A stretch of DNA of 64,000 nt from Lachnospiraceae bacterium (lineage in GTDB: Bacteria > Bacillota > Clostridia > Oscillospirales > CAG-272), in assembly GCA_024404495.1 (NCBI GenBank), contig JAKSPT010000002.1, forward strand, positions 41,410-105,409. Direction: 5' to 3'. A program made the translations under genes and the position numbers. Positions 17,468 to 63,500 of the stretch are shown here, in pieces. The notes beneath the pieces were generated by a model that was not told the DNA's origin, did no database searches, and worked only from the letters and a program-made list of their open reading frames with translations. Numbering within the stretch: position 1 is the stretch's first letter; each line of letters starts with the position of its first letter.

Positions 17468-17602
17468 GGCTCTTCATATTTTTTGGTGTGTGAAGGTTTA
17501 TTGTTCTCCTTGATGCCGAAGCATAGCCTGCCGCGCAGAAGGTTCCGGAAGTCCCGCCCTACGAGGCGAATCTTCGGTCAACGGACGAGAATGAGGAAAA
17601 AG
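17468..17602 (-). repeat. Copy E of the GC-hairpin terminal-inverted-repeat element family: internally deleted, inverted orientation
   Basis: The rc of 17468-17602 matches the left arm (cctcattctcgtccgttgaccgaag...cgtagggcggga) fused directly to the right arm (cttccggaaccttctgcgcggcaggctatgcttcggcatcaaggagaacaataaaccttcacacaccaaaaaatatgaagagcc) of copy C (53830-54166). Confidence 0.8.
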
Positions 17603-17720
17603 CACCGATATTTATGAAGAACCAATTTTTATGCGGGTGCGTCATATTTCCTCTTCGGTTATCGACTTATAGGGTGAACGGCAAAGCGCGCACGCCGTTC
17701 GGACGAAAGAAAGGATCATC

Positions 17721-18281
17721 ATGGAAGACGAAGCTATCATCGGAATGCTCTTTGACAGGAACGACGCCGCGCTTCCCGAAATCGCAAAAAAGTACGGGAG
17801 GCTGTATGCCGGCGTTCTTCGCGGGATCCTGAACGAAGAGAGCGATATCGAGGAATGTGCGAACGACGTTCTGCTTTCGGCGTGGAACAGCATCCCGCCG
17901 AACCGACCGGAAAGACTCGCGCCATATCTCTGCACGCTGGCAAAGCGGACCGGGATCGACCGGGTGCGGTACAATACCCGGCAGAAACGGAGCCCCGGCT
18001 TTCTCGTTCTGCTGTCGGAGCTGGGGGAATGTTATCCGGGGGAAGAACCCGCCGCGCCGGACGATACTGCCGGAGAAGTGCTCCGGGACGCGATGAACCG
18101 GTTTTTAAGAGGGCTTGACCCCGCGGAACGGATCCTGTTTTTGCGGCGGTACGTTTACGGCGAATCGCCCGCCTCCCTTGCCGGACGGTTCGGAATGAAG
18201 GAAAACACGGTCTGCGCAAGGCTGTCGAGAACGAGAAAAAAGCTGAAACGCTTCCTGACGAACGAGGAGATCACGATATGA
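17721..18281 (+). CDS. ECF-type RNA polymerase sigma factor (sigma-70 family)
   Basis: Region-2-like DVLLSAWNSIP and region-4 HTH (ESPASLAGRFGMKENTVCARLSRTRKKLKR). Confidence 0.75.
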   Translation: MEDEAIIGMLFDRNDAALPEIAKKYGRLYAGVLRGILNEESDIEECANDVLLSAWNSIPPNRPERLAPYLCTLAKRTGIDRVRYNTRQKRSPGFLVLLSELGECYPGEEPAAPDDTAGEVLRDAMNRFLRGLDPAERILFLRRYVYGESPASLAGRFGMKENTVCARLSRTRKKLKRFLTNEEITI

Positions 18282-19258
18282 AAGAGAATAAAGCCGAAAA
18301 ATTATATCTGGCGCTTTCCGAAGCGGACGATGATCTGCTCCGCGAGGCGGAGGAGACCGATTCCCGCGAAAAACTGAACGGCAAAAGCGGGGCAGATTCC
18401 GGAAAGATCCGCCGCAAAAGGATCGTGAGAACGGTTTCCGCGCTCGCGGCCTGCCTCGCCGTGGTGCTGACGGTGACGTTCGTCGCGCCGCTTCTGAAAA
18501 ATGACACGATCCCGGCGTGGATCACGGAGACGGTCGGCGGAAAGCTCGACTGCTTTGACGCCGTGAACTATTACGGCGCGAAAACGCTTCTGATGCGGGA
18601 AGCGGGGATCGACCTTGAAAGCGCGGGAACGGTGAAGCAGACCGCGTTCCTTCCCGCACCTCCTTCCTTCCGCTTCCTTTCGGCTGTCGGAACGGAAGAG
18701 GAAACGGAATTCTTCGGGGACGAGGAAACGAAACCCGACGAGGATATCTATTATTATGAGATCGACCCGAACGAGCGGTTCAGGATCACGAAGGTCATCG
18801 CGTTTCAGATCGGTCTGACCGATCCGGAAGGCTTTCTCGCCAAAAGGCTCGGGACCGGGATCGTTGACGTCGTGATTACCGAAAGCAATCTGGAAATTAT
18901 GATCACCTTCCACGCGCACGGAAAATACTATACCTGCCTTATGAACGGCGGCGGGAAGACAAATTATCAGTTCTCCACGCACAAATATATCGAAGGGTTC
19001 CATATCGTCAAGAATTTTGAACAGGTCAACTACGCTTTTGCGATTGATATTGCCGAAGGGCACGTGACCGGGCTTACCTGCTCCGGAGGTTACGGTTACG
19101 GTTCCGACTGTCCGCCCGACCGCGCATTCGTCGTGGAAGGCTCCGACTATATGAAAAAAGTGAACGGTTCCTTTACCGTGCCGGAGCTTGAAGGCATTAT
19201 CAGCAATCTGCCGCCGGAAAGTGCTTTCGTATCCGGAAAGGAGGAGGAGAGCGTATGA
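18278..19258 (+). CDS. Putative membrane-anchored anti-sigma factor
   Basis: ATGA overlap with the sigma gene; single TM (IVRTVSALAACLAVVLTVTFVAPLL) after a charged N-terminal domain. Confidence 0.5.
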   Translation: MKENKAEKLYLALSEADDDLLREAEETDSREKLNGKSGADSGKIRRKRIVRTVSALAACLAVVLTVTFVAPLLKNDTIPAWITETVGGKLDCFDAVNYYGAKTLLMREAGIDLESAGTVKQTAFLPAPPSFRFLSAVGTEEETEFFGDEETKPDEDIYYYEIDPNERFRITKVIAFQIGLTDPEGFLAKRLGTGIVDVVITESNLEIMITFHAHGKYYTCLMNGGGKTNYQFSTHKYIEGFHIVKNFEQVNYAFAIDIAEGHVTGLTCSGGYGYGSDCPPDRAFVVEGSDYMKKVNGSFTVPELEGIISNLPPESAFVSGKEEESV

Positions 19259-19677
19259 AAAAATCACTTCGTATTCTGTGCCTTGCGCTCCTTTGGCTGA
19301 CGCTGTTTTCCCTCGCTTCGTGCGGATCGGGTGCGGACGACGCAAAGGCGCTTGCCAATTATCTGCAATGGTTTGACGAGCCGGGAAGCGTTCCGATCCA
19401 TGCTTATGAAAAAGCGGAATTCAAGGAAGCCGTTAATTATTATCTCGACAGAGGACCCTGTGAACCGGACGACCCGGAATCCGTGAAACTGATCATCGTT
19501 TACGACAAGAAGCAGAAGACTTATACGAACTGCTTTGTATTGGATATGGAATACGGTCTGCACACCGAATTTCTGACGCGGTGGGAAGGACGGCAGTACA
19601 ACGCAAAATCGATCACCGTTTTCACGGAAGAAGAGATCCGTTCACTCGTCGAAAAAGCCGCAGAATACTGTAAATAA
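19255..19677 (+). CDS. Small lipoprotein of unknown function
   Basis: Lipobox signal peptide MKKSLRILCLALLWLTLFSLASC; start overlaps the upstream stop. Confidence 0.6.
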   Translation: MKKSLRILCLALLWLTLFSLASCGSGADDAKALANYLQWFDEPGSVPIHAYEKAEFKEAVNYYLDRGPCEPDDPESVKLIIVYDKKQKTYTNCFVLDMEYGLHTEFLTRWEGRQYNAKSITVFTEEEIRSLVEKAAEYCK

Positions 19678-19682
19678 CGCAA

Positions 19683-19718
19683 AAGAGGAAATCTCATCCG
19701 GGATTTCCTCTTTTTTCA
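19683..19718 (+). terminator. Rho-independent terminator
   Basis: agaggaaatc-tcatccgg-gatttcctct followed by tttttt. Confidence 0.8.
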
Positions 19719-19752
19719 TAGCCGCGTGCGCTGTTTCCGCCGGGCGGGCTAT

Positions 19753-19780
19753 TGTAAAAGCGGCTTTTTTCTGTTATACT
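19753..19780 (+). promoter_or_regulatory. Sigma70-type promoter for the sigma-fusion gene
   Basis: TTGTAA (19753-19758), 16-nt spacer, TATACT (19775-19780). Confidence 0.5.
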
Positions 19781-19884
19781 AAAAATGCAGCATTTTTTCT
19801 GATCGCCCAACCTTTTTCGGTTCCCGCGTGTCTATAAGACAGGTACCGAAAAAAGGAATATTCCGAAAAGAAAGGAGACCGCGT

Positions 19885-23043: not shown

Positions 23044-23061
23044 ACTCTCTTTTATAACAAA

Positions 23062-23098: not shown

Positions 23099-23265
23099 TA
23101 TTCGGGTTTATGATTCGCCGGAACCTTTCTTCCGCCAATCAAAAAGGCTCCTGTTCTTTTCTCCTTTCGGAAATACCGTGCAGTGCACGGTATTTCCGAA
23201 TCAAAAGCCGGGAAAAGCAGACGTTTGCTTTTCCCGGCTTTCGGTTGTGTTAAGGAATCATCGTT

Positions 23266-24801
23266 TTACGGCTGAATGCCCTCGTCCGGCGCGCTCTTTT
23301 CCACGGTGAGCACCGGCGGTTCTTCGACCGTCTGCGCGGCGGCTTTCAGCTTGTCTATGCCGCTGACGCGCTGCACGAGGTCGGCTTCAAGCACGCCGAG
23401 CAGCTTTTTGCCGTTGTCGTCACCGGCGGCACGGGCGGCGGACATCGCGGCGCGCTGACGGTCAAAGTAGCTGACGCCGTTTTCGTCGGGCTCCATGCAG
23501 TTCTTAAAGGCTTCCGACTGCTTGATCTTCTCGACCGCTTCCTCGTAGACCGTTTCGTCCCTGCAGACGACGCCGTTCTTTTTCATCAGCGCCGAAACGA
23601 GGATCCTTGCCATCGCGTCGCCGAGCGCCTCCCCGGTCAGCGTTTCGTCGTCGAGCGAACGGTAGGCGGCGTCGGACTGTTCCTTCGCGACGTTCCGGTT
23701 CGCACGCTTTTCCGCCCAGCCCTCGGGCCATTTGTCCTTCGGGAATTTGCCCTCGCACTGCGCGAGGAAGGTGAGCTGATTGCCGATCATGTAGTTCAGC
23801 AGGTCTTTTCCGCTCATCCCGTCGATGAAATCCTTCGTCTGCTGCTTCCCGGCACCCTCCCACATTACCTGACGGTTGGTCAGATCGCCGTCCTCGGTCT
23901 CCTCGTCAAGCCAGCGGGAAAGCCCGTCGGCAAGCTCCTTTGCCTCGGCGTCGGTCAGCTCGGAGAGGTTCTTCTTTCCCGTCATATAGCGGAAGGAACG
24001 GTCCATTTCCTCGGGACTCATATCTCTCGGGTCGCCGGTCTTTCCGGAAACGCCGTAGGTGATCCGGTAAAGCTGCGGGTTCTTTTTGATCAGACGGCTG
24101 ATCTCTCCCGCGGCGGGAGACGGCACCGGAGGATTCTTTTTCTCTTCTTCTTTTTTCGCGAGGACCTTTTCGGGGTCGGTGAAGTCCTTCATCGCGGCTT
24201 TCAGCGTCTCGAAGGATGCCTTTCTCGCGTTCTGACGCTCCACGGCAGCCTCGTACGCTCTCTGCTCGGAGGTCTTGATGCCGATGTAGTTCAGCATCCG
24301 GGAGAAGAAGCCGACCTTTTCCGGCTCGGACTGCGAGATCGCGGTTTCGACCGAGGCAAGGAGCTCGTCTCCGGTCATGAGCTCGCCGTCCTTGTCCTTT
24401 GCGAAGGGGACGATGCCGATCGCCGGGTGATACCCGAAGATAACGCCGTTTTTGTCAAGCACGACGTCGACCTCGTTCGGAGTCAGGCTCTCGACCTCGC
24501 GCTCCTGCGCGTTTTCGAGCGAGACGTAGTATTTCAGCTCGCTGCGGACGCCGTTCAGCACGGTATTCATACGGTTCGCCCGGCGCTCCTCGGCGCGGCG
24601 CTTCTTTGCCTCCGCCTCGGGGGAATTGTTCTTTGCCGTTTCCTCGCCGATATTGAGGTTTTCCGCGATATCCTCGTCGTTTAATACGGGCGCTTCCTTT
24701 TCGGGCTCTTCCGCGGGCACTTCATCAAAGTCGATCCCCTCCGCGGCGAGCACCGTCTCCGCGAGGACTTCTCTGTAATCTTTCTTTCCGAAACGGGACA
24801 T
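23266..24801 (-). CDS. Hypothetical acidic protein (511 aa)
   Basis: Clean ORF with RBS and a downstream hairpin-plus-T terminator (rc of 23207-23243); no recognised domain. Confidence 0.5.
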   Translation of the reverse strand: MSRFGKKDYREVLAETVLAAEGIDFDEVPAEEPEKEAPVLNDEDIAENLNIGEETAKNNSPEAEAKKRRAEERRANRMNTVLNGVRSELKYYVSLENAQEREVESLTPNEVDVVLDKNGVIFGYHPAIGIVPFAKDKDGELMTGDELLASVETAISQSEPEKVGFFSRMLNYIGIKTSEQRAYEAAVERQNARKASFETLKAAMKDFTDPEKVLAKKEEEKKNPPVPSPAAGEISRLIKKNPQLYRITYGVSGKTGDPRDMSPEEMDRSFRYMTGKKNLSELTDAEAKELADGLSRWLDEETEDGDLTNRQVMWEGAGKQQTKDFIDGMSGKDLLNYMIGNQLTFLAQCEGKFPKDKWPEGWAEKRANRNVAKEQSDAAYRSLDDETLTGEALGDAMARILVSALMKKNGVVCRDETVYEEAVEKIKQSEAFKNCMEPDENGVSYFDRQRAAMSAARAAGDDNGKKLLGVLEADLVQRVSGIDKLKAAAQTVEEPPVLTVEKSAPDEGIQP

Positions 24802-28437: not shown

Positions 28438-28720
28438 ACCGGACAATCGTCTTCGGGCGCGTCCGGAGCGTAAACGGAACACGTCGTAGGGCGGGGCCTT
28501 GTGTCCCGCCGCGGAATAATCAGCGAAAGGCGGAGTAGAAACCGACGTGCGTCACCGTGCGAAATACGGAGAAATGACGATTCCGGAAACGGCGGGTTCC
28601 GAATGAAAAATGACACGCAGCGGTTTTTTATGTCCGTTCGATCTTCTTCCCGCGGCGGGACACAAGGCCCCGCCCTACGACATCGCCCGAAGAGAAGCGG
28701 ACGAGCACGAAGAAGGGCGG
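28438..28720 (+). repeat. Copy A of the GC-hairpin terminal-inverted-repeat element family
   Basis: Left repeat cgtagggcggggccttgtgtcccgccgcg at 28485-28513, right repeat (its rc) at 28651-28679; the 137-bp internal segment is ~80% identical to copy C; the outer arms also form inverted repeats (cgtcttcgggcg versus cgcccgaagag). Confidence 0.85.
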
Positions 28721-28778
28721 TCATGGGCGAGTGACGGAACGCTTTTGCAATTCATTTCATTCCGCAGGAGGTGAGAAA

Positions 28779-36467: not shown

Positions 36468-37289
36468 TTGAAATCGTTCAAAATCGGACAAAGTATTGAA
36501 AAAAGCCTGTACCCGATCGAAAGCAGACTGGAAGAAATGAACCGGGAAAGAAAAGAAGGAGAGAGAAAGCTCGCGGAGATCTGCGTCCCTGCTCTCGTTT
36601 CCGCGCTTCTGACCGCCGCCGTTTCCGACCGGCTGCTGTACGTCGATCCCATCAAGCCGTCGCTTGCGTTTAATTGGTACGAGAAGATCGTTTCCAACGG
36701 CTTCGGTATGATCGCCGTTTATCTTCTGACCTTTGCGGTGATCGCGCTTGCCGTTTTCGGCGTCATCCGGCTGATCCGCTTCTTCCTCGAAAAAAAGAGC
36801 GGAACGAAAGCCGCGCCCGCGAAAGACGAATACGCGGACAGATTCTATAAGATCATCATCCCGGAGATCATCACCGGAAGCGGAATGTTCGAGAAGGCGT
36901 ACGAGATCGAATGCGGAAACGTTGACGCCGAGGAGCTGACAGAAGGCGCGTCTGCTGCCGCGATGAACGCGGAGAATATCCGTCTGGAGGAGATCCCGAC
37001 GAAGGATATCAACCGCAAGGCGATGCTGTATTATTACGAGGCGCTTTATCATTTCCGCTCGATCATCCCCGAGCTTGAAACGATCATCTATTCCGAAGAC
37101 GCCCTGAACGCCGATCCCGTCGAGCGTTACCGCCGTATCGGGCAGGACGCCGTGACGGATGCGCTCCTCATCTGCCGCCACTGCGTGAACGAGATCTGCA
37201 AGCGCACCGAGGACGCGCACGAGGAGGAGATCATCGAGGCTTACGGCGACTACCTCCGCAAGGTCAGCGAGGTACAGTTCGACCGCTGA
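36468..37289 (+). CDS. Hypothetical membrane protein (273 aa), TTG start
   Basis: GGAGGA RBS 8 nt before the TTG; two TM helices; the C-terminal ~105 aa are duplicated immediately downstream. Confidence 0.5.
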   Translation: MKSFKIGQSIEKSLYPIESRLEEMNRERKEGERKLAEICVPALVSALLTAAVSDRLLYVDPIKPSLAFNWYEKIVSNGFGMIAVYLLTFAVIALAVFGVIRLIRFFLEKKSGTKAAPAKDEYADRFYKIIIPEIITGSGMFEKAYEIECGNVDAEELTEGASAAAMNAENIRLEEIPTKDINRKAMLYYYEALYHFRSIIPELETIIYSEDALNADPVERYRRIGQDAVTDALLICRHCVNEICKRTEDAHEEEIIEAYGDYLRKVSEVQFDR

Positions 37290-37630
37290 CAGACGGCGCG
37301 TCTGCTGCCGCGATGAACGCGGAGGACATCCGGCTGGAGGAGATCCCGACGAAGGATATCAACCGCAAGGCGATGTTGTATTATTACGAGGCGCTTTATC
37401 ACTTCCGCTCGATCATCCCCGATTTTGAAACGATCATCTTTTCGGAGGATGCCGACGACGCCGATCCGGTCGAGCGTTACCGCCGTATCGGGCAGGACGC
37501 CGTGATGACCGCGCTTCTCGCCTGCCGCCACTGCGTGAACGAGATCTGCAAGCGCACCGAGGACGCGCACGAGGAGGACGTGATCGCCGCCTACGGCGAG
37601 TTCCTGCGCACGGTCAGCGAGAAAAAATAA
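36946..37630 (+). repeat. Tandem direct duplication (~340 bp x2, ~90% identity)
   Basis: 36946-37289 versus 37290-37630 (gcgtctgctgccgcgatgaacgcggag...cgcaccgaggacgcgcacgaggagga repeated). Confidence 0.85.
37313..37630 (+). CDS. Duplicated C-terminal module (105 aa) of the upstream gene; independent small gene or gene fragment
   Basis: ~88% amino-acid identity to residues 169-273 of the 36468-37289 product (MNAEDIRLEEIPTKDINRKAMLYYYEALYHFRSIIP...). Confidence 0.4.
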   Translation: MNAEDIRLEEIPTKDINRKAMLYYYEALYHFRSIIPDFETIIFSEDADDADPVERYRRIGQDAVMTALLACRHCVNEICKRTEDAHEEDVIAAYGEFLRTVSEKK

Positions 37631-37791
37631 AAAGCATAAATATTAGCGCGGGAAAAAGATAAAGCGGTGTACAACCCAGTGAAGTGCTATGCGGCGAATG
37701 ATGTTTGATAAGTCAGAACCGGAAAAGCAATGGCATTATACTGATTTGTATACCGCCTTTTCGTTTTGTAAAAAAGAAAGCGCTCGAAATT

Positions 37792-40700
37792 ATGGAAAAA
37801 CAAACAATACAAAAAGAGATTACACGTTTGAAAGAAAAACAGATTTCGCCTTTGGATATTTCTGAAGAAGATAAGTATAATCCGATTCTCGCAAAATATG
37901 AAAGAGAAAGCGGACTTCTTTTGACCGATCGTAGAGGTTTTGATATTATTTCTAACCGGTTCTTTGTTGAAGAACGAATATCGAAAGTGATGCCTCCCTC
38001 CGCTGATTGCTTTCAAGTGGATAATAAATATTTTGATTCGTTTGATGAGTATTATGAGTACCTGAACGGATCGGTATATGACGAATCCTGTTATTCCTTT
38101 TGCCCGGAGGATAAGCTGATTTCAAAATATGAAATCGACAAAGAAAGACTTTTTTCCAAAAAGGCATTTACCACTGAAACGATAGACGAGTATCTTTCAT
38201 TGATTACAGATGCCGAGATGAGCGAATATCGGGAAAGAGAAAAAACTCATAAATTGTGTTGTAATTGGAGAAAAAAGTATCTGAATTGTCACAGCGGAAA
38301 AGACTTGATTGGTCTGATTGATAAGTACAGTCATTCTGTAATCGCAGACACAATGGATTATCAGTTCTTTTTGTCTTGCTATCTGACAGAGTTTTCTCGG
38401 GAAAAATTCTGTTTTGATTCGATAATAGAACTGATGGCTTCTGATATCTATTTGGATAATAGTTTTCTGTCAAGCTTATGCGTTATTTTTGATCCTGAGA
38501 TTATTCTTGATGCCTTAAAGCGATTTCCGCATTCCTATGGGATTAAAAAAATCAGAAAAATTTATCGAGATATTAAGCACAAGATTGGGGACGAAAAGCC
38601 TGTTTTCTATGTGCGTGGGAAATTTGATCCGGCTACACATTTCTTCTGCGAGGAGATATCAGAGTATTCAGGCAATAAATGGGTCGCAACATTTAACAGA
38701 TATTTTGAATCGTTTGAGGATTTTGCAACATACCGTAAAGGCAATCTCAGACATTGTGATTTTTCAAAGTGTCTGGAAAATATGGATAATATCGATTATT
38801 CCGGATATATGATTGATGAAACCACCGTATTGCCACTGCTTTCATATCATAAATGTCGCTATGAAATAAGCAAAAGATACCGGAAGAATGAATTTCTGGT
38901 ATCCATTCGTTGGTATGATACCAATGAGAATGAAGTTAAAACCGTCAAAAAAAGCTTTCAATATTTTTTTGATTTCGTTTCGTTTTTGAAAAACGATTTA
39001 TCTGATGCCTATTTGATTTCCTGCGACGGCTTACAGAATCTCGAGAGCGGTTCGGACATTGATTTTACGGGTGTAAGATTAACAAGCAATCTTTGCAAAA
39101 AGATGCATATCAAATATGAGCCCTGCTCGCTTTTGCTTGGTAGCGCATGGAGTTTTGCGGAAACAGAACGAAATGAAAAAGAAACAGAACTGATTTTATC
39201 TGAAAGCAGAGAAATCGTAAGTTCTCACGAAGATAAAAGTTTGTTGGGCTTCACGGATTACGACAGTCATTGTCAAAGAGTTCATTATATTTCCGATCTT
39301 CATTTGATGCATAAAATAATGAATGCCGGATGCGTCACCGAAAACGACGTGTTTTATGTGATTGATAAAATTGCCAGAACAATCGCCGAAGAAGCAGAGT
39401 CTCTTTTGTTGATTGCCGGAGATGTGTCCTCTGATTTCAACATTTTTCGCTTGTTTGTGAAATGTCTATCAGCGGCGAAAAGTTCGCAGTGTGTCGTTGT
39501 TTTTACTCTCGGAAATCATGATTTGTGGGGTATTGGAGGAAAAACCTTTTCGGAAATAACAGGAATATATCGTGAGCTAATAGAAAAGCACGGTATGTAT
39601 CTGCTTCAAAACGGTATTCTGTATCGGAATGACTATAGGATATGGGAGAATCCGTCAGCAAGCGTAAGAACGATACCATACGAAGATCTTTGCAGAAAAA
39701 CAGATAAACAGTTAACAGATGATTTGAGAAAGGCGCGATATGTGATTTTTGGCGGTCTGGGTTTTTCCGGACAGAATGAAATCTTCAATGCAAATCAAGG
39801 AATATATCTGGATGTGGTGACAAGAGAGGAAGAAATCAAAGAATCGGAAAAATTTGCTCATTTATATGACCGGTTGCTTCCCATCCTGACTACGAAAAAC
39901 GCCATAATAATGACGCATACCCCGAAAAGCGATTGGAGCGAAAACGGCGACTGCGATGATAATCTGGTATTTGTAAACGGACACACTCATAAAAATCAGT
40001 TTTATGATGACGGGTGCTATCGCCTTTATGCGGACAATCAGATTGGTTACAGCAATAAAAATCCTCATTTGAAATCATTATTGCTGGATGGCGATTATGA
40101 TTGTTTTTCGGACTATGATGACGGAATTTATTCGATTACCAGGGAACAGTATTGTGATTTCTATCGCGGAAAAAACATAATGATGACGTTTACGCGAGAT
40201 TACCCGATTACGATGTTGAAAAAAAGAGGGTATTACTGCTTTTTGGTTCAAACGAAGAAGGGCGTCTTGTCGATATTGAACGGCGGAAGTATGAAACCTC
40301 TTCCCGGAAATAGCGTTCAGTATTTCTATGATAATATGGGTTCTGTAATTGCCAATATAAATACCCCGCTTATGAAATACACAGAATATCAAAAAGTAGT
40401 CGCGGATGAAATAAAAAAGATCGGCGGCGACGGGACGATCCACGGGTGCATTGTGGATATTGACAAGTGTAATCATATTTATGTAAACCCTATAGATAAA
40501 AAGCTGACGGCATATTATGCTCCAAAAGATATAATCGACAAAACAGTATACCCATCCATTGTTTCTTTATTGGAAGAACAATGCCCTAAACTGTATCAAA
40601 TATATGAACGTTTAATGCTGGCAGAAGGACAACCAAATGCACTAATACAACAGCAAAATGGTTCGACCAAACCAACAAAATATTTGAGTACGGATATCTA

Positions 40701-45082: not shown

Positions 45083-45224
45083 GAATAAGGTTCTTCATTC
45101 ATATCGGGGTTTTGGAACGGCGGGGGTAAGAACAACCGGACCGAAAAGAAAAGCGGACGCGCCCGGAGAGGCTTTGTTCTCTTCCGTTTCCTTTCTCTCA
45201 ACGGGACACCTCATACAGATCAGC

Positions 45225-45705
45225 TTCGGGTTCTGCTTTCCTCGTTCTCGCCCGCGTGACTTCGGGCGATGTCGTAGGGCGGGGCCTTGTGTCCCGCCGC
45301 GACAGGAGAGCGAGCGGCAGGGCAGAGAGCGTAATACGTCACGAGCCGGGATACGAAGAGCGGTTCTTTTCCGGAATAATGATTGGTTCTATGGGTTGAT
45401 TATGATTCCTTTGATTTATGCCGCCGCAGCGGCTGAATTCGGGATCTGAAAGGGAAGAGCGATTTCTCCGTATCAAGCACGGTGACGTACCCTGCTCACC
45501 ACTTCGCCTTTTGCCTGATTTATCGCGGCGGGACACAAGGCCCCGCCCTACGACGCATTCCGTTTGCGCTTCGGACGCGCTCGAAGACGGGCGTCAGCGC
45601 GCTACGACGCGTTCCGTTTGCGCTCCGGACGCGCTCGAAGGGCGTCGTCTGAAGAGAAGCAGACGCGGAAGAAGGCAATCAATCTTCACGCACCAAAAAA
45701 GCAGA
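45225..45705 (+). repeat. Copy B of the GC-hairpin terminal-inverted-repeat element family; internal segment inverted relative to copy D
   Basis: Left repeat 45273-45301, right repeat 45524-45552. The internal 222 bp equal the rc of copy D's internal segment plus a ~95-bp insertion bounded by gaagagcg direct repeats. The right arm carries a tandem ~55-bp duplication (ctacgacgcattccgtttgcgcttcggacgcgctcgaag... twice). Confidence 0.85.
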
Positions 45706-45716
45706 AAGAACCAATA

Positions 45717-50946: not shown

Positions 50947-51091
50947 CGGTTACTCCTTTTCATTATATAGCGGTGTGGAAAAAAGGATACTATAGGAATT
51001 TTATCACGGATGGAGGGAAATGTCAAGGGAGAAAAAAACGAGAACCGCTTGCGGTTGGCGGTTCTCGAGCTGCCGTACGGCAGCGCTTGTT

Positions 51092-51328
51092 TCATTTCTT
51101 TTCGGGGATTTCTTTTTCGTTCTTGCAATAGGGGCATTCGATCATATGATAGCCGCAGATACGGTACGCTTTTTCCTGCGCCTCTGCGGCAGGAAGAGGG
51201 TGTCCGCCGTCCATTTCGCGGTCAATGATGCTATCAAACTTTTCTTGATCATTGGGAACCTTGATTTGTTTGGTGTCTTGACAATAGGAACAGTTGTAAT
51301 TCATAAGAGAGATTCCTTTCAGCGTCAT
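51092..51328 (-). CDS. Small zinc-ribbon protein (two CxxC pairs)
   Basis: 78-aa ORF (MNYNCSYCQD...ECPYCKNE) with a downstream hairpin-plus-T terminator (rc of 51036-51068). Confidence 0.4.
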   Translation of the reverse strand: MTLKGISLMNYNCSYCQDTKQIKVPNDQEKFDSIIDREMDGGHPLPAAEAQEKAYRICGYHMIECPYCKNEKEIPEKK

Positions 51329-51599
51329 TTTGTGATAATCGGTTGTTAACCGCTTATCAGTATTATACTGCTTTTTCGTTTCGGCGTCAAGAAGCCGGAA
51401 CCGAATACCGGGAGACGGGAATCCCGAAAACGATCATGGATCCCTTGCTTCCCGACCGCATCGTGACCGTCAGTCACGACCGGTTTTCACAGCATTTCGA
51501 AATGAACAGACCGCTTCAGAAGCGGTGAACCGGGAAATAACGGTTGACATTTTTTGGCGGAAGTGCTATGATAAAAACAAAGAATGAGAGGATCTCTGC

Positions 51600-52625
51600 A
51601 TGAAGGAAATCACCGAATATTTATTGAAGAATGCGTCAATCAAGACGAATATCATTTCCGGGGATCGGCTGAAAGACGATAGTAAGCTTTGTATGAAATA
51701 TATTATCGAAGACGCTTTCAAACTCGGAAAGAATGGTATTGATTGCAAATATTATGACGCCGTGGTGCAGGGAGAGGGAAAAGAAAAGGATAAGATCAAC
51801 TCCCTTTACTCCAGCTCGCTTCAGTCTCTGCTTGTGTTTTGCGGGGTAAGCGCGGACAATCCGATCACCGTTGATGGAATCGAATACACGAAAGTCATGT
51901 TTGAATACAAAAACAAGGTGATCGGGTATCCGTCTTCCGTTGACGTTGTTTTGATGTCAAAGGACGAAAAGAAAGTGCTGTTTATCGAGTCCAAGCTATA
52001 CGAGATTGTTCGGGATTCTGATAAAGAAGGCAAATGTGAAGTCGGTCCGTCATATCTGTCAACTGACGAAAACGGGTATAAAAAGCTGGGTTTGTGTCAG
52101 GACGATCTGACAGAAATCGGAATAGACTTAAAGGACACCGGAATTTTCGGAACGAAAAACCCTTCCGATATGAAGAAGCATATATTAGGTTCATCAAATC
52201 AACCGACAAGAGACGGGAACGGATGGGTCAGAATAAAACCGATAAAGGGAAACGAGTATGTTTATTCGTACGGGATCAAGCAGTATTTAAGTCATATCAT
52301 CGGGATCATGAATTATAAAACCCCGGATACTAATTGCTCGACGGGATTAAAGGATCGGCTTTTTTCCAAAATCGGTTTCCTGATTCTGTATAATGACCTG
52401 CCCGGTTATACGAAGGAGGACGCAAAAGAAAAAATCAAATCTTTCAAGAAACATTGCGAGACGGTTAAAGGCGTTCTGGAGAAAAAGGCGATTCATGTGG
52501 ACGGAATCCCGATTGACATATCGATGGAATCCTATCAGAAATTGGCAGAGGAAGCAAAGCCATATTTTGATAAAATGCCTGCAACGGTCAAAGAGTATTA
52601 CCATCTTAACGAAAGAGAAACCTGA
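51600..52625 (+). CDS. Hypothetical protein with a PD-(D/E)xK nuclease-like motif, in an AT-rich islet
   Basis: Beta-strand pair ...SSVDVVLMSKDEKKVLFIESKLYE fits the (P)D...(D/E)xK core; low-GC, Lys-rich composition unlike its neighbours. Confidence 0.45.
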   Translation: MKEITEYLLKNASIKTNIISGDRLKDDSKLCMKYIIEDAFKLGKNGIDCKYYDAVVQGEGKEKDKINSLYSSSLQSLLVFCGVSADNPITVDGIEYTKVMFEYKNKVIGYPSSVDVVLMSKDEKKVLFIESKLYEIVRDSDKEGKCEVGPSYLSTDENGYKKLGLCQDDLTEIGIDLKDTGIFGTKNPSDMKKHILGSSNQPTRDGNGWVRIKPIKGNEYVYSYGIKQYLSHIIGIMNYKTPDTNCSTGLKDRLFSKIGFLILYNDLPGYTKEDAKEKIKSFKKHCETVKGVLEKKAIHVDGIPIDISMESYQKLAEEAKPYFDKMPATVKEYYHLNERET

Positions 52626-52668
52626 ACGAAAATACAATTCAAAACAATCTTTGAAGGGAGCAAACACT

Positions 52669-53778
52669 ATGAAGAAACTGTTATCGCTCGTTCTCAGCAT
52701 TCTTCTTCTTTCCGCATCCTTGATCCCGCTCGCGTCGTGCGATCAAAGCGGAAAACCGGGAGAAACGACCGCGCCGGAGGGCACCGGAGCCGAAGCGACC
52801 GGGGCGGACGCGACCGAGCCCGAAACGGAAAAGCCGGAGGAAAAAGGAATGGAACTGATCCCCGATCTGAAATTTGAAAAAGGGCTCGAGCTGCTCAGTC
52901 AGAAGGACCACGCAAACGGCGACGCGATCAAAACGCTCGGTACGCACAGCTTTTACGCCGATAAAACGGCGGAGAACCCGGTCTGGCGTCTGGCACAGTG
53001 GGATTCCGGTCCCTGCCTGATCGAAAACCGGGTGGATCGGGGCGTTTCCGAGATCACCGACGGCGCGTACCGCAGTTTTTCCTATCTGCCCGCAAAAAAC
53101 GAGATGACCTTCTTCCTCGACACCTCGCTTTATTATCAGGGCAAGCCCGCGAAGCAGGGCGACTACTGGCCGCATCTGCTGATCGAGGAAGGCGACTTCG
53201 GCTATCAGTCCCTGCCTGCAGAAACGAAGGCGTATTATTCCTGCGGAGCCGAAAAGCTGGTCTTTTCGATGGATGTGAGAATGGACGAATACGACCTGAC
53301 CAAGATCACGGGCGACTGGGTGCGCGCGGCGCAGTTCCTTGTCTATTTCTACGTCAAGGGGATCGAAAGCAATGATTTCTGCTGGTTCGGCGTGCAGATC
53401 TTCGACAACCGTTCCGAGCTGAGCGACAACTACATCGGTTATGACGGCGGCAAGCCGGATGCCTCCTCCGCGATGATCTACTCGATCGGCAGGAAGAACG
53501 TCTATCCGTCGGCAGACGAGGGCGGCTGCCCCTTCTGGTACGAGGGCAAGCCCCTCGCAAGCGATGACTGGATGCACGTCGAGATTGATCTGAAACCGTA
53601 TCTCGAAGATATGCTGAACGTCGGAAAGAAAAACGGCTATTTCAAGGTCGATTCGCTCGATGATCTCTGCATCAATGGGATGAACATCGGTTGGGAAACG
53701 ATCGGCACCTTCTGCCACTCCATGTCGGTGAAGGATATGTCGCTCCGCTCCTATCTCGAAAGCGACCTTGCCGAATAA
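52669..53778 (+). CDS. Lipoprotein of unknown function
   Basis: Lipobox LLLSASLIPLASC; GAAGGGAG RBS; start trimmed from the ORF-track 52393. Confidence 0.55.
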   Translation: MKKLLSLVLSILLLSASLIPLASCDQSGKPGETTAPEGTGAEATGADATEPETEKPEEKGMELIPDLKFEKGLELLSQKDHANGDAIKTLGTHSFYADKTAENPVWRLAQWDSGPCLIENRVDRGVSEITDGAYRSFSYLPAKNEMTFFLDTSLYYQGKPAKQGDYWPHLLIEEGDFGYQSLPAETKAYYSCGAEKLVFSMDVRMDEYDLTKITGDWVRAAQFLVYFYVKGIESNDFCWFGVQIFDNRSELSDNYIGYDGGKPDASSAMIYSIGRKNVYPSADEGGCPFWYEGKPLASDDWMHVEIDLKPYLEDMLNVGKKNGYFKVDSLDDLCINGMNIGWETIGTFCHSMSVKDMSLRSYLESDLAE

Positions 53779-53829
53779 ACAAATAAGTCGGGATGCCGCA
53801 TTGTGCGGCATCCCGTTTTTTTAGGTTCT

Positions 53830-54166
53830 TCATATATATTGGTGTTTTATCCTCGTTCTCGTCCGTTGACCGAAGGTCCGCCTCGTAGGGCGGGGCCTTG
53901 TGTCCCGCCGCGGGAAGATAAGCAATAGGCGAAGCGGAAGCCGATGCGCGTCACTGTGCGAAATACGGAGAAAAGACGGTTCTTGAAACGTCGGATTCCG
54001 AATGCAAAGTGACGCGCAATGCTTTGTTTACGTCCGTTCGGACTTCTTCCCGCGGCGGGACACAAGGCCCCGCCCTACGAGGCTTCCGGAACCTTCTGCG
54101 CGGCAGGCTATGCTTCGGCATCAAGGAGAACAATAAACCTTCACACACCAAATAATATGAAGAGCC
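53830..54166 (+). repeat. Copy C of the GC-hairpin terminal-inverted-repeat element family (most canonical copy)
   Basis: Left repeat 53884-53912, right repeat 54051-54079; the outer arms are also inverted (ttcttcatatatattggtg versus caccaaataatatgaagag); lies between convergent gene ends. Confidence 0.85.
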
Positions 54167-54170
54167 TTTT

Positions 54171-55883
54171 TTAATGGTTGACGATCGGGTAAACGCTGAA
54201 GGGTTCGTCGTGAATATCGAGGTACGCCATATACTCGTGCGCGCCGTCGTGACGCATCGCGAAGCGGCGTCTGCTTCCGGGGATCGGAACGAACTCGTCC
54301 TCCGGATGGTCGGGATCCCACGCGACCCCGACCGTGGCGGGACCGAGCGCGGCGTAAAGCAGAGGTCCGTATTCGAGGGCGAAGCGATCCTTTCCGGGGA
54401 TTTCCTCGCCGCCCGTGTATTTCGTGACGCGGAAGCCCATCGGCAGGGTGAACGCAATTTCGTCCCCCGCTTTGATACCGGTCAGCTCCGCGTAGCCGGG
54501 ACCCGCGGTGAGCGCTTTTTTCCCGTTTTTCATCAGCGTCACCGGGGCTGTGACCCAGCGCGGGATCCGGAACCGGAACGAAAAGGGCTTTTCCGCGTGT
54601 GTGACGGTGAAGGTCACCCCGCCGTCGTCCGGCATGGCGGTGCGGCATTCGACCGAAACGGCGTTTCCGTTCAGGTCGAGATCCGCCTCACTTTCGGCGT
54701 ACAGGTCGGCGTAAAGGACGTCCTTTGCCGTCGTATAGAGAAACTGCGGGAGCATTCCGGCAAGCCTCGTTCCGAGCGAGGCACAGCAGGTGCAGCGGTC
54801 GAGATAGCGGGAATCCTTGCCGCCCTCAAGGAAATTCAGGTAGTGATAGCCCTCGCTGCCGACCTGCGAGGCGAGGAGGACGTTATAGACCGAGTTTTCG
54901 ATCTCGTCGGCGTAGTGGGAGTTGTCCGGTTCAAGCAGGCGCATCCTCTGATTCAGGAAGATCCAGAAATTCGTGGAGCAGAGCTCGTTGTAGTTGTGCT
55001 TCATGCTCAGCCAGTTGCAGCCGGGGTAATAGGTGTCCATCTCGCACATATTGATCCCGCCGCCGACGTGCTGCCACTTGTCCTCATACATTTTCAGCGC
55101 TCCTTTGACGGCACGCAGATAGGTTTCGTCCCCCGTGACGCGGTAGAGATCGAGATATCCCTCGAGCGTGGTCAGCAGGGTGGAATGAGGATGGTTCCCG
55201 GGGTGCGCGTAAATCGCCTTATGATCGCCCGCGATGCATTGGCCGAGCCACCATCTTTCCTCGTAGGCGCGGACCGTCACGTCGATGTCCTCCTTTTTCC
55301 CGACCGGGGAATCGTAGACGCGCGTTCCGATCAGCAGCCCCTGAAAGCCGAGGTTCATATCCTTGACCGTGTCGAGCAGATCGCAGGAATTGAAGAAATC
55401 GGTCATCCCGCGCGCGAGGCCGAACGCGCCGCCGATCCCGGCGTAACCCGCGTCGAGCAGACCGTAGGTCACCCACGCGCGGGTATAGTTCGGGTATTCC
55501 TTGGTGCGCCATTCGTTCCGGTCGATCGGCAGGAAGAAGCCGTCCTCATCCCGGCAGGCGGCGATCTCTTTTACGATCTCCTCCGCCATACCGCGTAAGG
55601 TTTCGTCCTCCTCCCAAAGCAGGGAGGTGCAGGCGCCCATCAGAAATTCGCCCGCCGTCTGTCCCTTGAGATTCCGCTCGAAATGCCCCGACTGCCAGCA
55701 GTAGGGCACGCCGGGCGCGGGCTTTCCCTTATGGACGCGGTAATAGTAGAGGATGCGGTCGGTGTCGAAGCCATGAAGAAAGGCGATATTGTTCCGGAAC
55801 GCTTTTTCAAGTCTTCCTCCGGTCAGCCTTACCCCCTTCGTCGGGGCGGAGGCTGCGTAGGGAACGACGTATTTCTTGTCCAT
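54171..55883 (-). CDS. Glycoside hydrolase family 127-like (DUF1680; beta-L-arabinofuranosidase-like)
   Basis: 571 aa after trimming to MDKKYVV; Cys-rich zinc motif YLDRCTCCASLG and the (alpha/alpha)6 pattern of DUF1680. Confidence 0.5.
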   Translation of the reverse strand: MDKKYVVPYAASAPTKGVRLTGGRLEKAFRNNIAFLHGFDTDRILYYYRVHKGKPAPGVPYCWQSGHFERNLKGQTAGEFLMGACTSLLWEEDETLRGMAEEIVKEIAACRDEDGFFLPIDRNEWRTKEYPNYTRAWVTYGLLDAGYAGIGGAFGLARGMTDFFNSCDLLDTVKDMNLGFQGLLIGTRVYDSPVGKKEDIDVTVRAYEERWWLGQCIAGDHKAIYAHPGNHPHSTLLTTLEGYLDLYRVTGDETYLRAVKGALKMYEDKWQHVGGGINMCEMDTYYPGCNWLSMKHNYNELCSTNFWIFLNQRMRLLEPDNSHYADEIENSVYNVLLASQVGSEGYHYLNFLEGGKDSRYLDRCTCCASLGTRLAGMLPQFLYTTAKDVLYADLYAESEADLDLNGNAVSVECRTAMPDDGGVTFTVTHAEKPFSFRFRIPRWVTAPVTLMKNGKKALTAGPGYAELTGIKAGDEIAFTLPMGFRVTKYTGGEEIPGKDRFALEYGPLLYAALGPATVGVAWDPDHPEDEFVPIPGSRRRFAMRHDGAHEYMAYLDIHDEPFSVYPIVNH

Positions 55884-55953
55884 TTTCCTGTCCTTTTTGC
55901 AAAGATCCGGCTGAAACGCGACGGGATCGTTTTTCAGCCGGATCGTTTGATTT

Positions 55954-56901
55954 TTAATCGGGGTAGACCGAGGAGAAACCGTAATATTCCTCCATCGTTC
56001 CCGCCTCCGTGATGGCGCGGCAAAGCTCGGGCGAGCCGATATAGCGGACGTGCCACGGCTCGTACATATAGCCGGTGACGCTCTCCTTGCCCTTCGGATA
56101 GCGGATGATGAAGCCGTAATCGCAGCAGTGCGCGGCGAGCCAGATGCCTTCCTTCGTCGTTTCAAAGACGGTGTGGCAGTCGATGACGTCGATCGCAAGT
56201 CCGGTCTCATGCTCCGAGTGACCGGGGCGCGCGGAGAAGCGGTCAGCCTGTGCCTTGCCGTGGCTCTGGATATAGGAATTGTAGAGCCATTCCTGCGTCG
56301 GGTAATCGCGGAAGCTCGAAACGCTGTAAAAGCGGATCCCTTCCTTCGCGGCGTCGGCGCACATCCGGTTGAACGCCGCTCTCGTTTCGGGCGTGACCGG
56401 ATAAGGATCGCCGTCGCGTTCGTAATCGAGCGCCGGGTAGTAGTCGGCGGGGAGGGAATAGGTCTTGTTCGCGATGACCTGCCCGTCGATATAGGTGACG
56501 CCGTTCTTGACCTCGATCGGGTAGCCTTTGGAGGTATATCCGGTGATCACGGCGCCCGGAACCTTCGCGGGCTTTTCAAAGGGCTCGGTTTCGGGTTCCG
56601 TTTCGGGCACCGTCTCGGGCTCCGTTTCCGGCACCGTCTCGGGCTCCGTTTCCGGGACCGTTTCGGGTTCGGTTTCGGGAATTGTCTCGGGTTCCGTTTC
56701 GGGAATTGTCTCGGGTTCCGTTTCGGGAACGGTCTCCGGAGCCGTTTCGGGCTCGGTTTCCGGGTCGGTGACGGGGGCGGTTTCCGGTTTCGTTTCCCGC
56801 AGGGATTCATACGGAGGATCGGGGCGCTTTGAGACCCACGCGCAGGAGGAAAGAAGCGCGGTCAGGAGAAGAACGAGGGTGATTTTCAGACTTGATTTCA
56901 T
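55954..56901 (-). CDS. M15-family D-alanyl-D-alanine carboxypeptidase (VanY-like) lipoprotein with a (PETE)n linker
   Basis: SEHETGLAIDV and EPWHVRY motifs; lipobox LLSSCAW; ~20 tandem ETEP/ETVP repeats. Confidence 0.75.
   Translation of the reverse strand: MKSSLKITLVLLLTALLSSCAWVSKRPDPPYESLRETKPETAPVTDPETEPETAPETVPETEPETIPETEPETIPETEPETVPETEPETVPETEPETVPETEPETEPFEKPAKVPGAVITGYTSKGYPIEVKNGVTYIDGQVIANKTYSLPADYYPALDYERDGDPYPVTPETRAAFNRMCADAAKEGIRFYSVSSFRDYPTQEWLYNSYIQSHGKAQADRFSARPGHSEHETGLAIDVIDCHTVFETTKEGIWLAAHCCDYGFIIRYPKGKESVTGYMYEPWHVRYIGSPELCRAITEAGTMEEYYGFSSVYPD
56560..56810. repeat. Tandem 12-nt coding repeats (ETEP/ETVP linker)
   Basis: ccgtttcgggaa/ttgtctcgggtt-type units repeated ~20 times. 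Confidence 0.8.
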
Positions 56902-56905
56902 TTTT

Positions 56906-58273: not shown

Positions 58274-58285
58274 AATGTTTTCTCC

Positions 58286-60349: not shown

Positions 60350-60361
60350 AAAGAAGCCTCC

Positions 60362-61408: not shown

Positions 61409-61515
61409 AAGGAGCATCTCCTTTTTCGTTCTTTTTTCTTCATTATATCCGATACGGAGCGGTTTTTCAAGGCGTTTTCAAAGATTTTACGGTTTTTTTC
61501 GGCGCGGGAATGCTC

Positions 61516-61544
61516 TTGACTTTCTTTCCTCCTTATGTTATACT
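61516..61544 (+). promoter_or_regulatory. Sigma70-type promoter for the solute-binding protein gene
   Basis: TTGACT (61516-61521), 17-nt spacer, TATACT (61539-61544). Confidence 0.55.
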
Positions 61545-61592
61545 GACCTTGTACGAACCGTACGAACGAAAATAGCATAAGGAGAAAACGAC

Positions 61593-63086
61593 ATGAAAAA
61601 ACGTATAGCCGCTCTGGTTCTCGCTCTGCTGACGATTCTCTCCGTTCTTGCCGCCTGCGCGGAAACGAAGGAGCCCGGCAAGGAGACCGTTCCCCCCGGA
61701 AGCGAGACCGAAGGCGAAACCGCCGCAAAGCTCGGCGTTCCCGAGGAGCTGGATTACGACGGGCGCACCTTCACCGTCCTGACCTGCCCCGGTGAAAATC
61801 AGACGACCGAGATCTACTGGACGCATTTCGGCGTCGAGGAAGAGACCGCCGACGACCTGAACGACGGCGTTTACCGTGCCAACGCGAGAACCGAGGCGTA
61901 TCTCAATATCGAATTCGAGAACGACACCTCCGGCAGCCTCGTCGATACCTCGGTTTACCGTCAGCACATCGCCGCGGACGACGGCGCCTTTGACGAAGCG
62001 ATCTGGATCGACCGTTTCGCGCTTGCGCTCGCCGAGGACGGTATGGTCTATTCGATGAACGACCTCGCCGATTATCACGTTGATCTCGATCAGCCGTGGT
62101 GGTACGCCACGCTGAACGAATATCTGTCGATCGACAATAAGCTGTATCTTGCCGCCGGTTATTCCGATATCTCTCTCTTCGGCGGTATGGCGATCATGCT
62201 CTTCAACAAGACGATCGCCACCGACCTGCAGCTCGGCAACATTTATCAGATGGTCTACGACGGCACCTGGGATTTCGACACGATGTACACGATGATGACC
62301 TCTGCCGCGAAGGAGCTTGACGGCGACCAGAAGATGACCGACGCCGACCAGTGGGGCGCCGTGTGGGTCGATACCTACTGGAACAACCCCTTCCACGCGG
62401 TCAACGGCGTCTTTATCATCGACAAGGACGAATACGATATGCCGTATCTCTCCGCGACCGAGGACGAAGACCTGTACAATATCTGGGAGTTCATGCTTGA
62501 AAACTTCCACGACCCGGCGTGCTCCTACGATATCAAGAACACCTCGAAATACAGCGCGGGTCATCCCTACGAGAACGTCGTGAATATGTTCGCCGACAAC
62601 AAGGCGCTCTTCACCGGCACCGTTCCGTTCTACCTCTACCTCCTCCGTGAAAAGGCGGACTACGGCATCATCCCGTTCCCGAAGACCGAAGCGGTCGAGC
62701 CCGGTACGCCCTACTATACCTACAGCACCGGTATCGTCGCGCACTTCGCTCCCTCCACGACGAAGGATCCCGAATTCACCTCCGCCGTGCTCGAAACGAC
62801 CAACTATTACTACTATAAGGACGCGATCCCGAACTATCTCGACGTCGTCCTCGCGTACAAGCAGACCCGTGACGACGACTCCGCGAATATGCTCGATATG
62901 GCGATCAAGTACCGCCGCCTCGAGCTCGGTCAGACCTTCTGGTTCGATTCCGCGATGGGCGCCGCGAGCACGGTTTACGGCTCGAAGAACGGCGTCGGCG
63001 TCTTCGCCTCCACCTTCGATTCCTACGCGGCGAAGATCGAGAGCGCGATCGAACGCACCGTCGATATGTTTGAAAAGCTCGGCTGA
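61593..63086 (+). CDS. ABC-transporter-type extracellular solute-binding lipoprotein (carbohydrate)
   Basis: Lipobox LSVLAACA; 497-aa family-1-like substrate-binding protein pattern; terminator ccccgcgctccggcgcggggg-tttttt at 63096-63125. Confidence 0.5.
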   Translation: MKKRIAALVLALLTILSVLAACAETKEPGKETVPPGSETEGETAAKLGVPEELDYDGRTFTVLTCPGENQTTEIYWTHFGVEEETADDLNDGVYRANARTEAYLNIEFENDTSGSLVDTSVYRQHIAADDGAFDEAIWIDRFALALAEDGMVYSMNDLADYHVDLDQPWWYATLNEYLSIDNKLYLAAGYSDISLFGGMAIMLFNKTIATDLQLGNIYQMVYDGTWDFDTMYTMMTSAAKELDGDQKMTDADQWGAVWVDTYWNNPFHAVNGVFIIDKDEYDMPYLSATEDEDLYNIWEFMLENFHDPACSYDIKNTSKYSAGHPYENVVNMFADNKALFTGTVPFYLYLLREKADYGIIPFPKTEAVEPGTPYYTYSTGIVAHFAPSTTKDPEFTSAVLETTNYYYYKDAIPNYLDVVLAYKQTRDDDSANMLDMAIKYRRLELGQTFWFDSAMGAASTVYGSKNGVGVFASTFDSYAAKIESAIERTVDMFEKLG

Positions 63087-63189
63087 TCTCAGCCGGTCAA
63101 TAGTCCCCCGCGCTCCGGCGCGGGGGATTTTTTACGCAAGAAAACGGCAGATCCCGGTTTTCGGGACTCTGCCGTTTTCCAAAGAGATT

Positions 63190-63500
63190 TTTCCTCGTTC
63201 TCGTCCGCGTTTCTTCGGGCGGTGCCGTAGGGCGGGGCCTTGTGTCCCGCCGCGATAAAAAAGGCAAAAGGCGAAGCGGGAAGCGAGGCGCGTCACCGTA
63301 CTTGATACGGAGAAATCGCTCTTCGTATCCCGGTTCGTGACGTATTACGCTCTCTGCCCCGCCTCCCGCTCTCCTGCCGCGGCGGGACACGAGGCCCCGC
63401 CCTACGATGTATTCCCAAAGTGAAGCGGACGCGCTCGAAGGGCGTCACCTGAAGAGAACCGGACAATAAAGACGATAAATCTTCACACGCCCAAAGAGGG
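63190..63500 (+). repeat. Copy D of the GC-hairpin terminal-inverted-repeat element family
   Basis: Left repeat 63226-63254, right repeat 63378-63406; the internal segment is itself a nested palindrome (gcgtcac...gatacgg...ccgtatc-like symmetry) and is the rc of copy B's internal segment. Confidence 0.85.

Follow-up and report, generated by a model that had tools for sequence, protein, structure and literature searches.

A palindromic intergenic repeat family in a Lachnospiraceae bacterium combines ISL3-like ends with an inner pair of GTAG-tagged hairpins

A 64,000-nucleotide (nt) stretch of the contig JAKSPT010000002.1 (positions 41,410 to 105,409; assembly GCA_024404495.1, Lachnospiraceae bacterium, lineage CAG-272), hereafter the window, carries a 29-nt GC-rich sequence that recurs between genes in inverted pairs, and this raises the question of which element these pairs belong to and whether they are its ends. 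A sequence-only reading of the window had taken the 29-mer to be the terminal inverted repeat (TIR) of a family of five intergenic elements that share traits of repetitive extragenic palindromes (REPs), miniature inverted-repeat transposable elements (MITEs) and invertible segments (invertons) and that resemble no recognised family. We report that the mobile unit is a large palindrome, not the 29-mer pair, that it is flanked by 7-bp target site duplications (TSDs), and that the 29-mers constitute an inner hairpin pair and not the element ends. We consider it likely that the five loci, A to E, are copies of a non-autonomous palindromic MITE with ISL3-type ends and an inner head-to-head (HH) dimer of a GTAG-tagged REP-like hairpin. 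The element is not a new class but joins two types of repeat that are already known, with a GTAG-REP HH dimer as the core of an ISL3-like MITE shell.

The 29-mer, CGTAGGGCGGGGCCTTGTGTCCCGCCGCG, is present eight times in the window in the form of four inverted pairs, while shuffled sequences gave an expectation of zero chance matches. The coordinates given earlier for the pairs are exact, except that the unit at 63378-63406 has one mismatch, located in the loop of the right 29-mer of copy E; this is the sole difference across the eight units (231/232 bases identical). Each unit is indeed a hairpin in which CGTAG is unpaired and is followed by an 8-bp GC stem (including one G.T pair) and a 5-nt loop; folding of the complementary strand is poorer. 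The eight units are all found between genes, on the 3' side of a gene, and within the pairs the GTAG ends point outward such that all are HH homodimers (n=4). The motif GTAGGGCGGG has a ninth occurrence, on the minus strand at 17553-17562 within copy A. The 29-mers stay near-invariant whereas the arms and spacers around them diverge: sequence identity between copies is 54-86% for the proximal arms, 35-86% for the 35 nt immediately outside the 29-mers and 65-84% for the 5' spacer halves, and the 3' spacer halves represent two unrelated types. BLASTN of each copy against the 64-kb window revealed no extra copies, and a scan of its intergenic DNA (window G+C content ~58%) for GTAG-tagged GC hairpins returned none besides the known units, i.e. 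there are no solo REPs elsewhere in the 64 kb.

Alignment of the copies gives a nested palindrome in which an outer inverted repeat (IR), a left arm, a 29-mer, a spacer, the inverted 29-mer, a right arm and the second outer IR follow each other (Table 1). The outer repeats read GGTTCTTCATATATATTGGTG and GGCTCTTCATATTATTTGGTGTGTGAAGG, with the consensus GGYTCTTCAT..TTGGTG..TGAAG, and exact GGYTCTTCAT is present at 17468, 17623 (minus strand), 45089, 53824 and 54166 (minus strand). Hence, copies A and D have an outer IR on either side and copy C has one on the left, whereas the right end of C has diverged and that of E is degenerate; copy E has no left outer repeat, and CCAAAGAG is present on both of its sides. 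The elements are non-coding and vary in size between 156 and 624 bp, and four of the five have the inner module, that is, two 29-mers around a partly self-complementary spacer of 123-222 bp. Folding of whole elements gives one long hairpin (z = -7 to -15, with z = -15 for copy D, where the perfect inner IR extends to 39 nt).

Two types of arms (A/D versus B/C/E) and two types of spacers, differing in the 3' half (B/D versus C/E), can be distinguished, and copy B has C/E-type arms together with a D-type spacer. With the arms as reference, D and E have a forward spacer and B and C a reversed one; comparing C with E, the arms are direct repeats (83-92% identical) while the spacers are reverse complements (90-93%). 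Both orientations were seen between paralogous copies only and never at a single locus. The left and right arm sequences quoted in the sequence-only reading are valid for C and E only; A and D carry the other arm type and in B the whole element is reversed. Likewise, the fifth, internally deleted copy in reverse orientation (A) does exist and is devoid of the inner module, but it covers 17468-17623 and not 17468-17602. It has A/D-type arms, 90-97% identical to those of D, and what is left of the inner module is CGTAGGGCGGG (17553-17562, minus strand).

Table 1. Positions of the element copies, their target site duplications and the 29-mer units in the window
Feature	Position	Strand	Remarks
Copy A	17468..17623	-	156 bp; outer IRs GGCTCTTCAT (17468) and GGTTCTTCAT (17623, minus strand)
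Copy A, TSD AATTTTT	left 17461..17467, right 17624-17630	.	
Copy B	28447..28732 (approx.)	-	~286 bp; whole element reversed
Copy B, TSD	right 28733-28739		right GACGGAA; left degenerate in window (GACAA)
Copy B, left 29-mer	28485..28513	+	
Copy B, right 29-mer	28651..28679	-	
Copy C	45089..45712	+	624 bp; left end GGTTCTTCAT; right end diverged (GGTTCTTTCTGCTTTTTTGGTGCGTGAAG on minus strand)
Copy C, left 29-mer	45273..45301	+	
Copy C, nested extra segment	45362..45453	.	92 bp within spacer; starts GGTTCTTTTCC
Copy C, right 29-mer	45524..45552	-	
Copy D	53824..54166	+	343 bp; complete, both outer IRs
Copy D, TSD TTTTTTA	left 53817..53823, right 54167-54173	.	right overlaps GH127 stop codon
Copy D, left 29-mer	53884..53912	+	
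Copy D, right 29-mer	54051..54079	-	
Copy E	63190..63507 (uncertain boundaries)	+	~318 bp; right end degenerate outer repeat (GGTATTCCCCTCTTTGGGCGTGTGAAG, minus strand)
Copy E, left 29-mer	63226..63254	+	
Copy E, right 29-mer	63378..63406	-	1 loop mismatch

The boundaries were determined by comparison with relatives, whose loci were retrieved via the neighbouring proteins (contigs labelled L004-L013); the strains that differ at these loci show ~90-96% protein identity. For loci A, B and C the empty sites place the boundaries 40-190 bp outside the 29-mers, with insertion ends at 17468/17623 (A), ~28447/28732 (B) and 45089/45712 (C). Locus C is empty in L004, L006 and L007 (aroC 96% or 87% identical), in which the terminator of the DUF3737 gene is contiguous with the aroC promoter, TTGACA-17-TATAAT, and the window has 624 extra bp. 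Locus A is empty in L008 (DcuC 94% identical), which reads CCCGGAATTTTTTTGAGGG with a single AATTTTT, and the corresponding sequence in the window is CCCGG-AATTTTT-(156 bp)-AATTTTT-ATGCGGG. Three states were found at locus B among strains with a WYL protein that is 89-100% identical: in L010 and L013 the terminator is intact and there is no element; in the window the element is complete, and L012 has its right-hand end on a contig that starts inside the right 29-mer; and in L011 the element lacks 226 bp, the junction being situated between AGGGCGG direct repeats (28488-28494 and 28714-28720 in the window). The L011 element is bordered by GACGGAG and GACGGAA, while the empty site has one GACGGAA. 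In L012, positions 1-20 correspond to the right 29-mer of locus B with one loop base different.

Taken together, duplications of 7 bp were read for copies A (AATTTTT) and D (TTTTTTA), for B in L011 (GACGGAG/GACGGAA) and around a nested segment in C (GAAGAGC). The palindrome continues outside the 29-mers, where no flanking direct repeats are present, and this together with the three empty sites contradicts the view that the 29-mers delimit the element. Since three loci are empty in close relatives, the insertions are recent; no copy of the element was detected in ~68 kb of syntenic or related DNA from the relatives L004-L010.

With respect to the targets, copies A, C and D are inserted in, or just past, the T-tract of a terminator and copy B in the loop of the terminator of an M48-like gene. 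Insertion in or beside intrinsic terminators therefore accounts for the position at gene 3' ends, which had been noted before and is confirmed here in that all five copies lie directly 3' of a gene or its terminator. Three of them (A, B and C) lie upstream of a following gene as well, which encodes an ECF sigma factor, a WYL-domain regulator and AroC, respectively; copy C has the DUF3737 terminator on one side and on the other the perfect aroC promoter at 45082-45054 of the minus strand. Copies D and E are positioned between convergent genes. Copy D is also at the edge of a ~3.2-kb segment (50970-54170) of lower G+C content (~51%) with open reading frames (ORFs) that lack Pfam matches; this segment is absent from the syntenic L005, where GH127 and a pectate-lyase-like gene are 178 bp apart.

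Two further features were noted in copy C. The 92-bp segment nested in its spacer is flanked by the direct repeat GAAGAGC (7 bp; 45355-45361 and 45454-45460), and in copy E the same site is uninterrupted. Its start, GGTTCTTTTCC, is similar to the outer repeat, and judged by these sequence features it looks like a mini-insertion generated by the same transposition machinery. The right arm (45553-45643) has a 54-nt tandem duplication with CTACG before each unit, similar to a degenerate second REP tail.

How do these parts relate to known repeats? The view that they resemble no recognised family did not hold, since the 29-mer fits GTAG-REPs (PMC3733652) and the ends fit ISL3 (PMC6305408, PMC11448079), while the description as a multi-copy, non-coding, intergenic family with both REP-like and MITE-like traits was borne out. 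GTAG-tagged REPs are 20-40 bp long and consist of a stem-loop with a stem of 6-13 bp, in which G.T pairs are frequent, and an unpaired GTAG or GTRG on one side of it; they are extragenic, mostly downstream of coding regions, and occur as singletons or as HH or tail-to-tail (TT) dimers that can fold into one large hairpin (PMC3733652). The dimer spacers are usually 20-100 bp, some dimers are embedded in longer palindromes, e.g. GTAG-15 of A. variabilis, and Firmicutes are not among the host phyla of that survey (PMC3733652). The 29-mer shares with these REPs the format of the unit, the extragenic location 3' of genes, the occurrence as singletons and as HH and TT dimers, the G.T pair and the folding into a large hairpin. 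It differs in that the host belongs to uncultured Clostridia, that the spacers are 123-222 bp and not 20-100 bp, and that within the window it is found only inside a larger element with its own TIRs and TSDs. Moreover, no gene for a REP-associated tyrosine transposase (RAYT) was seen in the window or next to the REP-like units in two contigs of other Clostridia (L001 and L003). Members of the superfamily are expected to reach tens to hundreds of copies across a genome and to have a RAYT gene flanked by the same REP; the 64 kb contain eight units. Work by Nunvar in 2010 and by Bertels and Rainey in 2011 reportedly deals with GTAG-REPs and with the REP doublets known as REPINs and bacterial interspersed mosaic elements (BIMEs).

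Beyond the window, an exact 28-mer search identified two contigs among the GTDB species representatives and one contig in the JGI metagenomes (L001-L003). All three derive from other Clostridia and match the 29-mer exactly over 29-30 nt, but lack the arms and spacers. In L001 the 29-mer is a singleton 3' of a sugar-kinase (FGGY kinase) gene; in L002 (2649-2724) it forms an HH heterodimer with the variant GTAGGGCGGGGGCTTGCTCCCGCC across a 22-bp spacer; and in L003 (6431-6665) a singleton is found beside a TT homodimer of the variant GTAGGGCGGGTCGCTTGCGCCCGCC with a 98-bp spacer. These units lie behind housekeeping genes, e.g. those for tyrS and the FGGY kinase, and in L002 and L003 the GTAGGGCGGG-type hairpins, with differing loops and stems, are clustered. 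These sequence matches point to the existence of a wider GTAG-REP-like family in uncultured Clostridia. The literature that we searched provided no description of such a hairpin family in Clostridia; matches to GTAGGGCGGG were G-quadruplex DNAzymes and not a bacterial repeat, and searches on RAYT together with Firmicutes or Clostridia and on the target preference of ISL3 gave nothing usable. Among viral contigs there were no matches to either the 29-mer or the outer repeat, and the plasmid collection had nothing relevant.

As to the shell, the IRs of the ISL3 family of insertion sequences (IS) begin with GGCTCTTCG, and in ISArsp7 the left IR is GGCTCTTCGCGGTTGGTGGTGAAT and the direct repeat is 8 bp long (PMC6305408). 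ISL3-derived MITEs are known, and one from Microcystis shares with its ISL3 partners both the GGCTCTTCG ends and duplications of 8 nt (PMC11448079). Our outer repeats GGCTCTTCAT and GGTTCTTCAT agree with an ISL3 IR that begins with GGCTCTT and continue with TTGGTG..TGAA as in ISArsp7. The elements also have what characterises a MITE: TIRs at the boundaries (not in B and not at the left of E), a 7-bp TSD, a small non-coding body and presence/absence polymorphism. In common with ISL3 elements and the MITEs derived from them are hence TIRs that start with GGCTCTTC followed by TTGGTG..TGAA, the small non-coding format, the short flanking TSDs and the strain-polymorphic insertions. The differences are that a long palindrome with a REP dimer fills the interior in place of the remnant of a transposase gene, that the TSD is 7 and not 8 bp, and that no cognate full-length IS with the same ends was found in the window, in the loci of the relatives or among the viral contigs.

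Palindromic MITE-like intergenic repeats present in many copies and with length variants are familiar from other bacteria. The Correia/NEMIS elements of Neisseria and the ERIC/IRU elements of enterobacteria are imperfect intergenic palindromes of 100-350 bp that are often co-transcribed at gene ends and vary in length through internal insertion or deletion; Correia duplicates TA on insertion. The end sequences and the duplication length of the present elements are unrelated to these, and we know of no Correia/NEMIS or ERIC/IRU element that has an invariant GTAG-REP dimer.

On the basis of these data, we propose that the element is mobilised in trans by an ISL3-type DDE transposase, whose gene would lie elsewhere in the genome, and that the 29-mer may be a separately recognised sequence, probably a REP-type site for protein binding or processing. 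The identical IRs of 29-39 bp might in addition act as homology anchors for inversion and gene conversion between copies. The left and right 29-mers are reverse complementary and, therefore, recombination inside a single element, or gene conversion from one element to another, can install a spacer either way round; spacer flips and reassortment would be explained by such recombination, so that no dedicated invertase is needed. The long palindrome is unstable: deletion between short direct repeats removes the inner module, as seen in L011. For copy A the same route is the best explanation, given the 90-97% identity between its arms and those of D and the retention of CGTAGGGCGGG. The alternative that copy A and the L011 allele are unfilled targets was rejected, since 10-11 nt of the 29-mer are still there in both and 34 nt of the arm are gone from L011, which fits deletion.

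Several observations weigh against an ISL3-derived MITE. Copy B (both ends) and the left side of copy E have no recognisable outer repeats, and copy B is nevertheless a recent insertion with a 7-bp TSD; this calls for ends that tolerate more variation than assumed or for a second route of insertion. The TSD is 7 bp in every readable case, compared to 8 bp in the published ISL3 elements (PMC6305408, PMC11448079), and the outer target duplication of copy C is imperfect, with TTATT alone common to both sides. No ISL3-type transposase was seen in the scanned window, and the family is represented by five copies in the 64 kb covered. The model that we favour also does not explain the cause of the 29-mer invariance, and with regard to the REP-like core, RAYT-type enzymes are sparse outside Proteobacteria, Cyanobacteria and Bacteroidetes (PMC6006769).

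The invariance would be accounted for if the 29-mer were the recognition site of a dedicated enzyme, a RAYT-like HUH nuclease or a recombinase, that maintains the identity of the hairpins and inverts or exchanges the spacers, such that a REP-type system in Firmicutes had been captured by a DDE-derived MITE; we regard this as possible but doubtful. Somewhat more doubtful, and in our view unlikely, is that the elements are of the REPIN/BIME type, where the doublet and its flanks are moved as single-stranded DNA by a RAYT (a Y1 HUH enzyme) encoded elsewhere and the outer repeats are incidental. This would fit with the GTAG tag, GC stem and HH dimer (PMC3733652), with the same 29-mer as REP-like singletons and dimers in other Clostridia, with the far higher conservation of the 29-mers than of their surroundings and with the recent insertion of copy B without outer repeats. 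Speaking against it are the four 7-bp TSDs and the outer TIRs. To our knowledge, single-strand transposition of the IS200/IS605-RAYT type yields neither of these. Furthermore, copy A moved, or has at any rate survived with both ends intact and a TSD, in the absence of the 29-mer pair, solo REPs are missing from the rest of the 64 kb, and the spacers are longer than the usual range for REP dimers. Consistent with the earlier statement that the window has no transposase, RAYT or recombinase gene, Pfam searches of its ~50 ORFs detected no transposase, Y1/RAYT or serine/tyrosine recombinase, and Y1_Tnp had no match among 10 ORFs adjoining the REPs of L001 and L003. Another role for the 29-mers, that of TIRs of a MITE inserted into a conserved target represented by the arms, has in its favour that the IRs are perfect and that the spacer is found either way round, as two-way insertion predicts. 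We rejected the 29-mers as transposon termini and find this reading hardly credible: there are no direct repeats at the 29-mers, the adjoining outside sequence is itself inverted-complementary, the empty sites of the relatives are without arms too, and the solo forms (A and L011) show the partial retention and, in L011, the arm loss described above.

That one invertase flips the spacers at the 29-bp IRs to switch neighbouring genes, i.e. an inverton family, is quite improbable, and the inverton-like property suggested by the sequence-only reading gained little support. The IRs are perfect and 29-39 bp long, the spacer size is typical, the spacers of D and E and those of B and C are oppositely oriented with respect to the arms, and three copies are upstream of genes (those for the ECF sigma factor and the WYL regulator, and aroC). 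In the capsule loci of Bacteroides fragilis, promoter invertons with shared inverted repeats are under the control of Mpi, and the present family resembles them in that one IR recurs at several loci around a 150-250 bp segment in both orientations. It differs from them in that no invertase was found in the window and no promoter in the spacers, as well as in the convergent-gene sites and the absence of the loci from relatives. A scan for sigma70-like promoters was negative for every spacer, and aroC keeps its perfect promoter outside copy C; D and E are between convergent genes, and the empty loci in close relatives mean that the genes are independent of the element. The two orientations, finally, are a matter of paralogous copies. 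We also find it very improbable that the elements are genes for structured non-coding RNA, or RNA regulators that, for example, stabilise 3' ends or terminate transcription, with the repeats as RNA helices. The strong predicted folding, the G.T stem pair, which as RNA is tolerated on the GTAG strand only, and the location at gene 3' ends are in keeping with this. Yet there was no Rfam family for the elements at the gathering threshold or even at E <= 1, the plain palindrome folds equally well on both strands, no T-tract follows the hairpins, the spacer 3' halves are of two unrelated types in either orientation, and relatives do without the elements. By inspection, the absence of a repeat-spacer array, of a matching architecture and of a reverse transcriptase led us to reject a CRISPR remnant, an attC site and a retron.

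Other features of the window are unrelated to the element. A 1045-amino acid (aa) ORF with a Metallophos domain (37705-40842) has a G+C content of 37% and, because the genome has 58%, was probably acquired horizontally; upstream of it (36935-37584) is a 300-nt direct repeat (91% identical), which is a partial duplicate of the preceding ORF. GH127 and the next ORF on the minus strand are separated by 695 bp, which include at least 17 tandem copies of a 12-nt unit of the GTTTCGGG.. type (56540-56830). A long hairpin between convergent ORFs (23170-23269), with weak miRNA-like Rfam matches only, is probably a bidirectional terminator, and the gene for an 806-aa SH3_3-domain protein has a 243-nt tandem duplication (78% identical) at 13017-13502.

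In conclusion, a lineage of uncultured gut Clostridia carries recently active non-coding mobile DNA that lands in or beside terminators, and the element is a possible strain marker. Because the L012 contig ends inside the element, our data also suggest that such palindromes break short-read metagenome assemblies. The elements illustrate how inversion, spacer reassortment and collapse through short-repeat deletion operate in a natural population, and an invariant 29-nt hairpin within a fast-diverging palindrome offers a test case for sequence conservation. Should a dedicated enzyme act on the 29-mer, two unrelated mobilisation systems would cooperate on one element, and if a partner protein exists it would represent a REP-handling system outside the phyla studied so far. 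GTAG-tagged REP-like hairpins are herewith extended to Clostridia.

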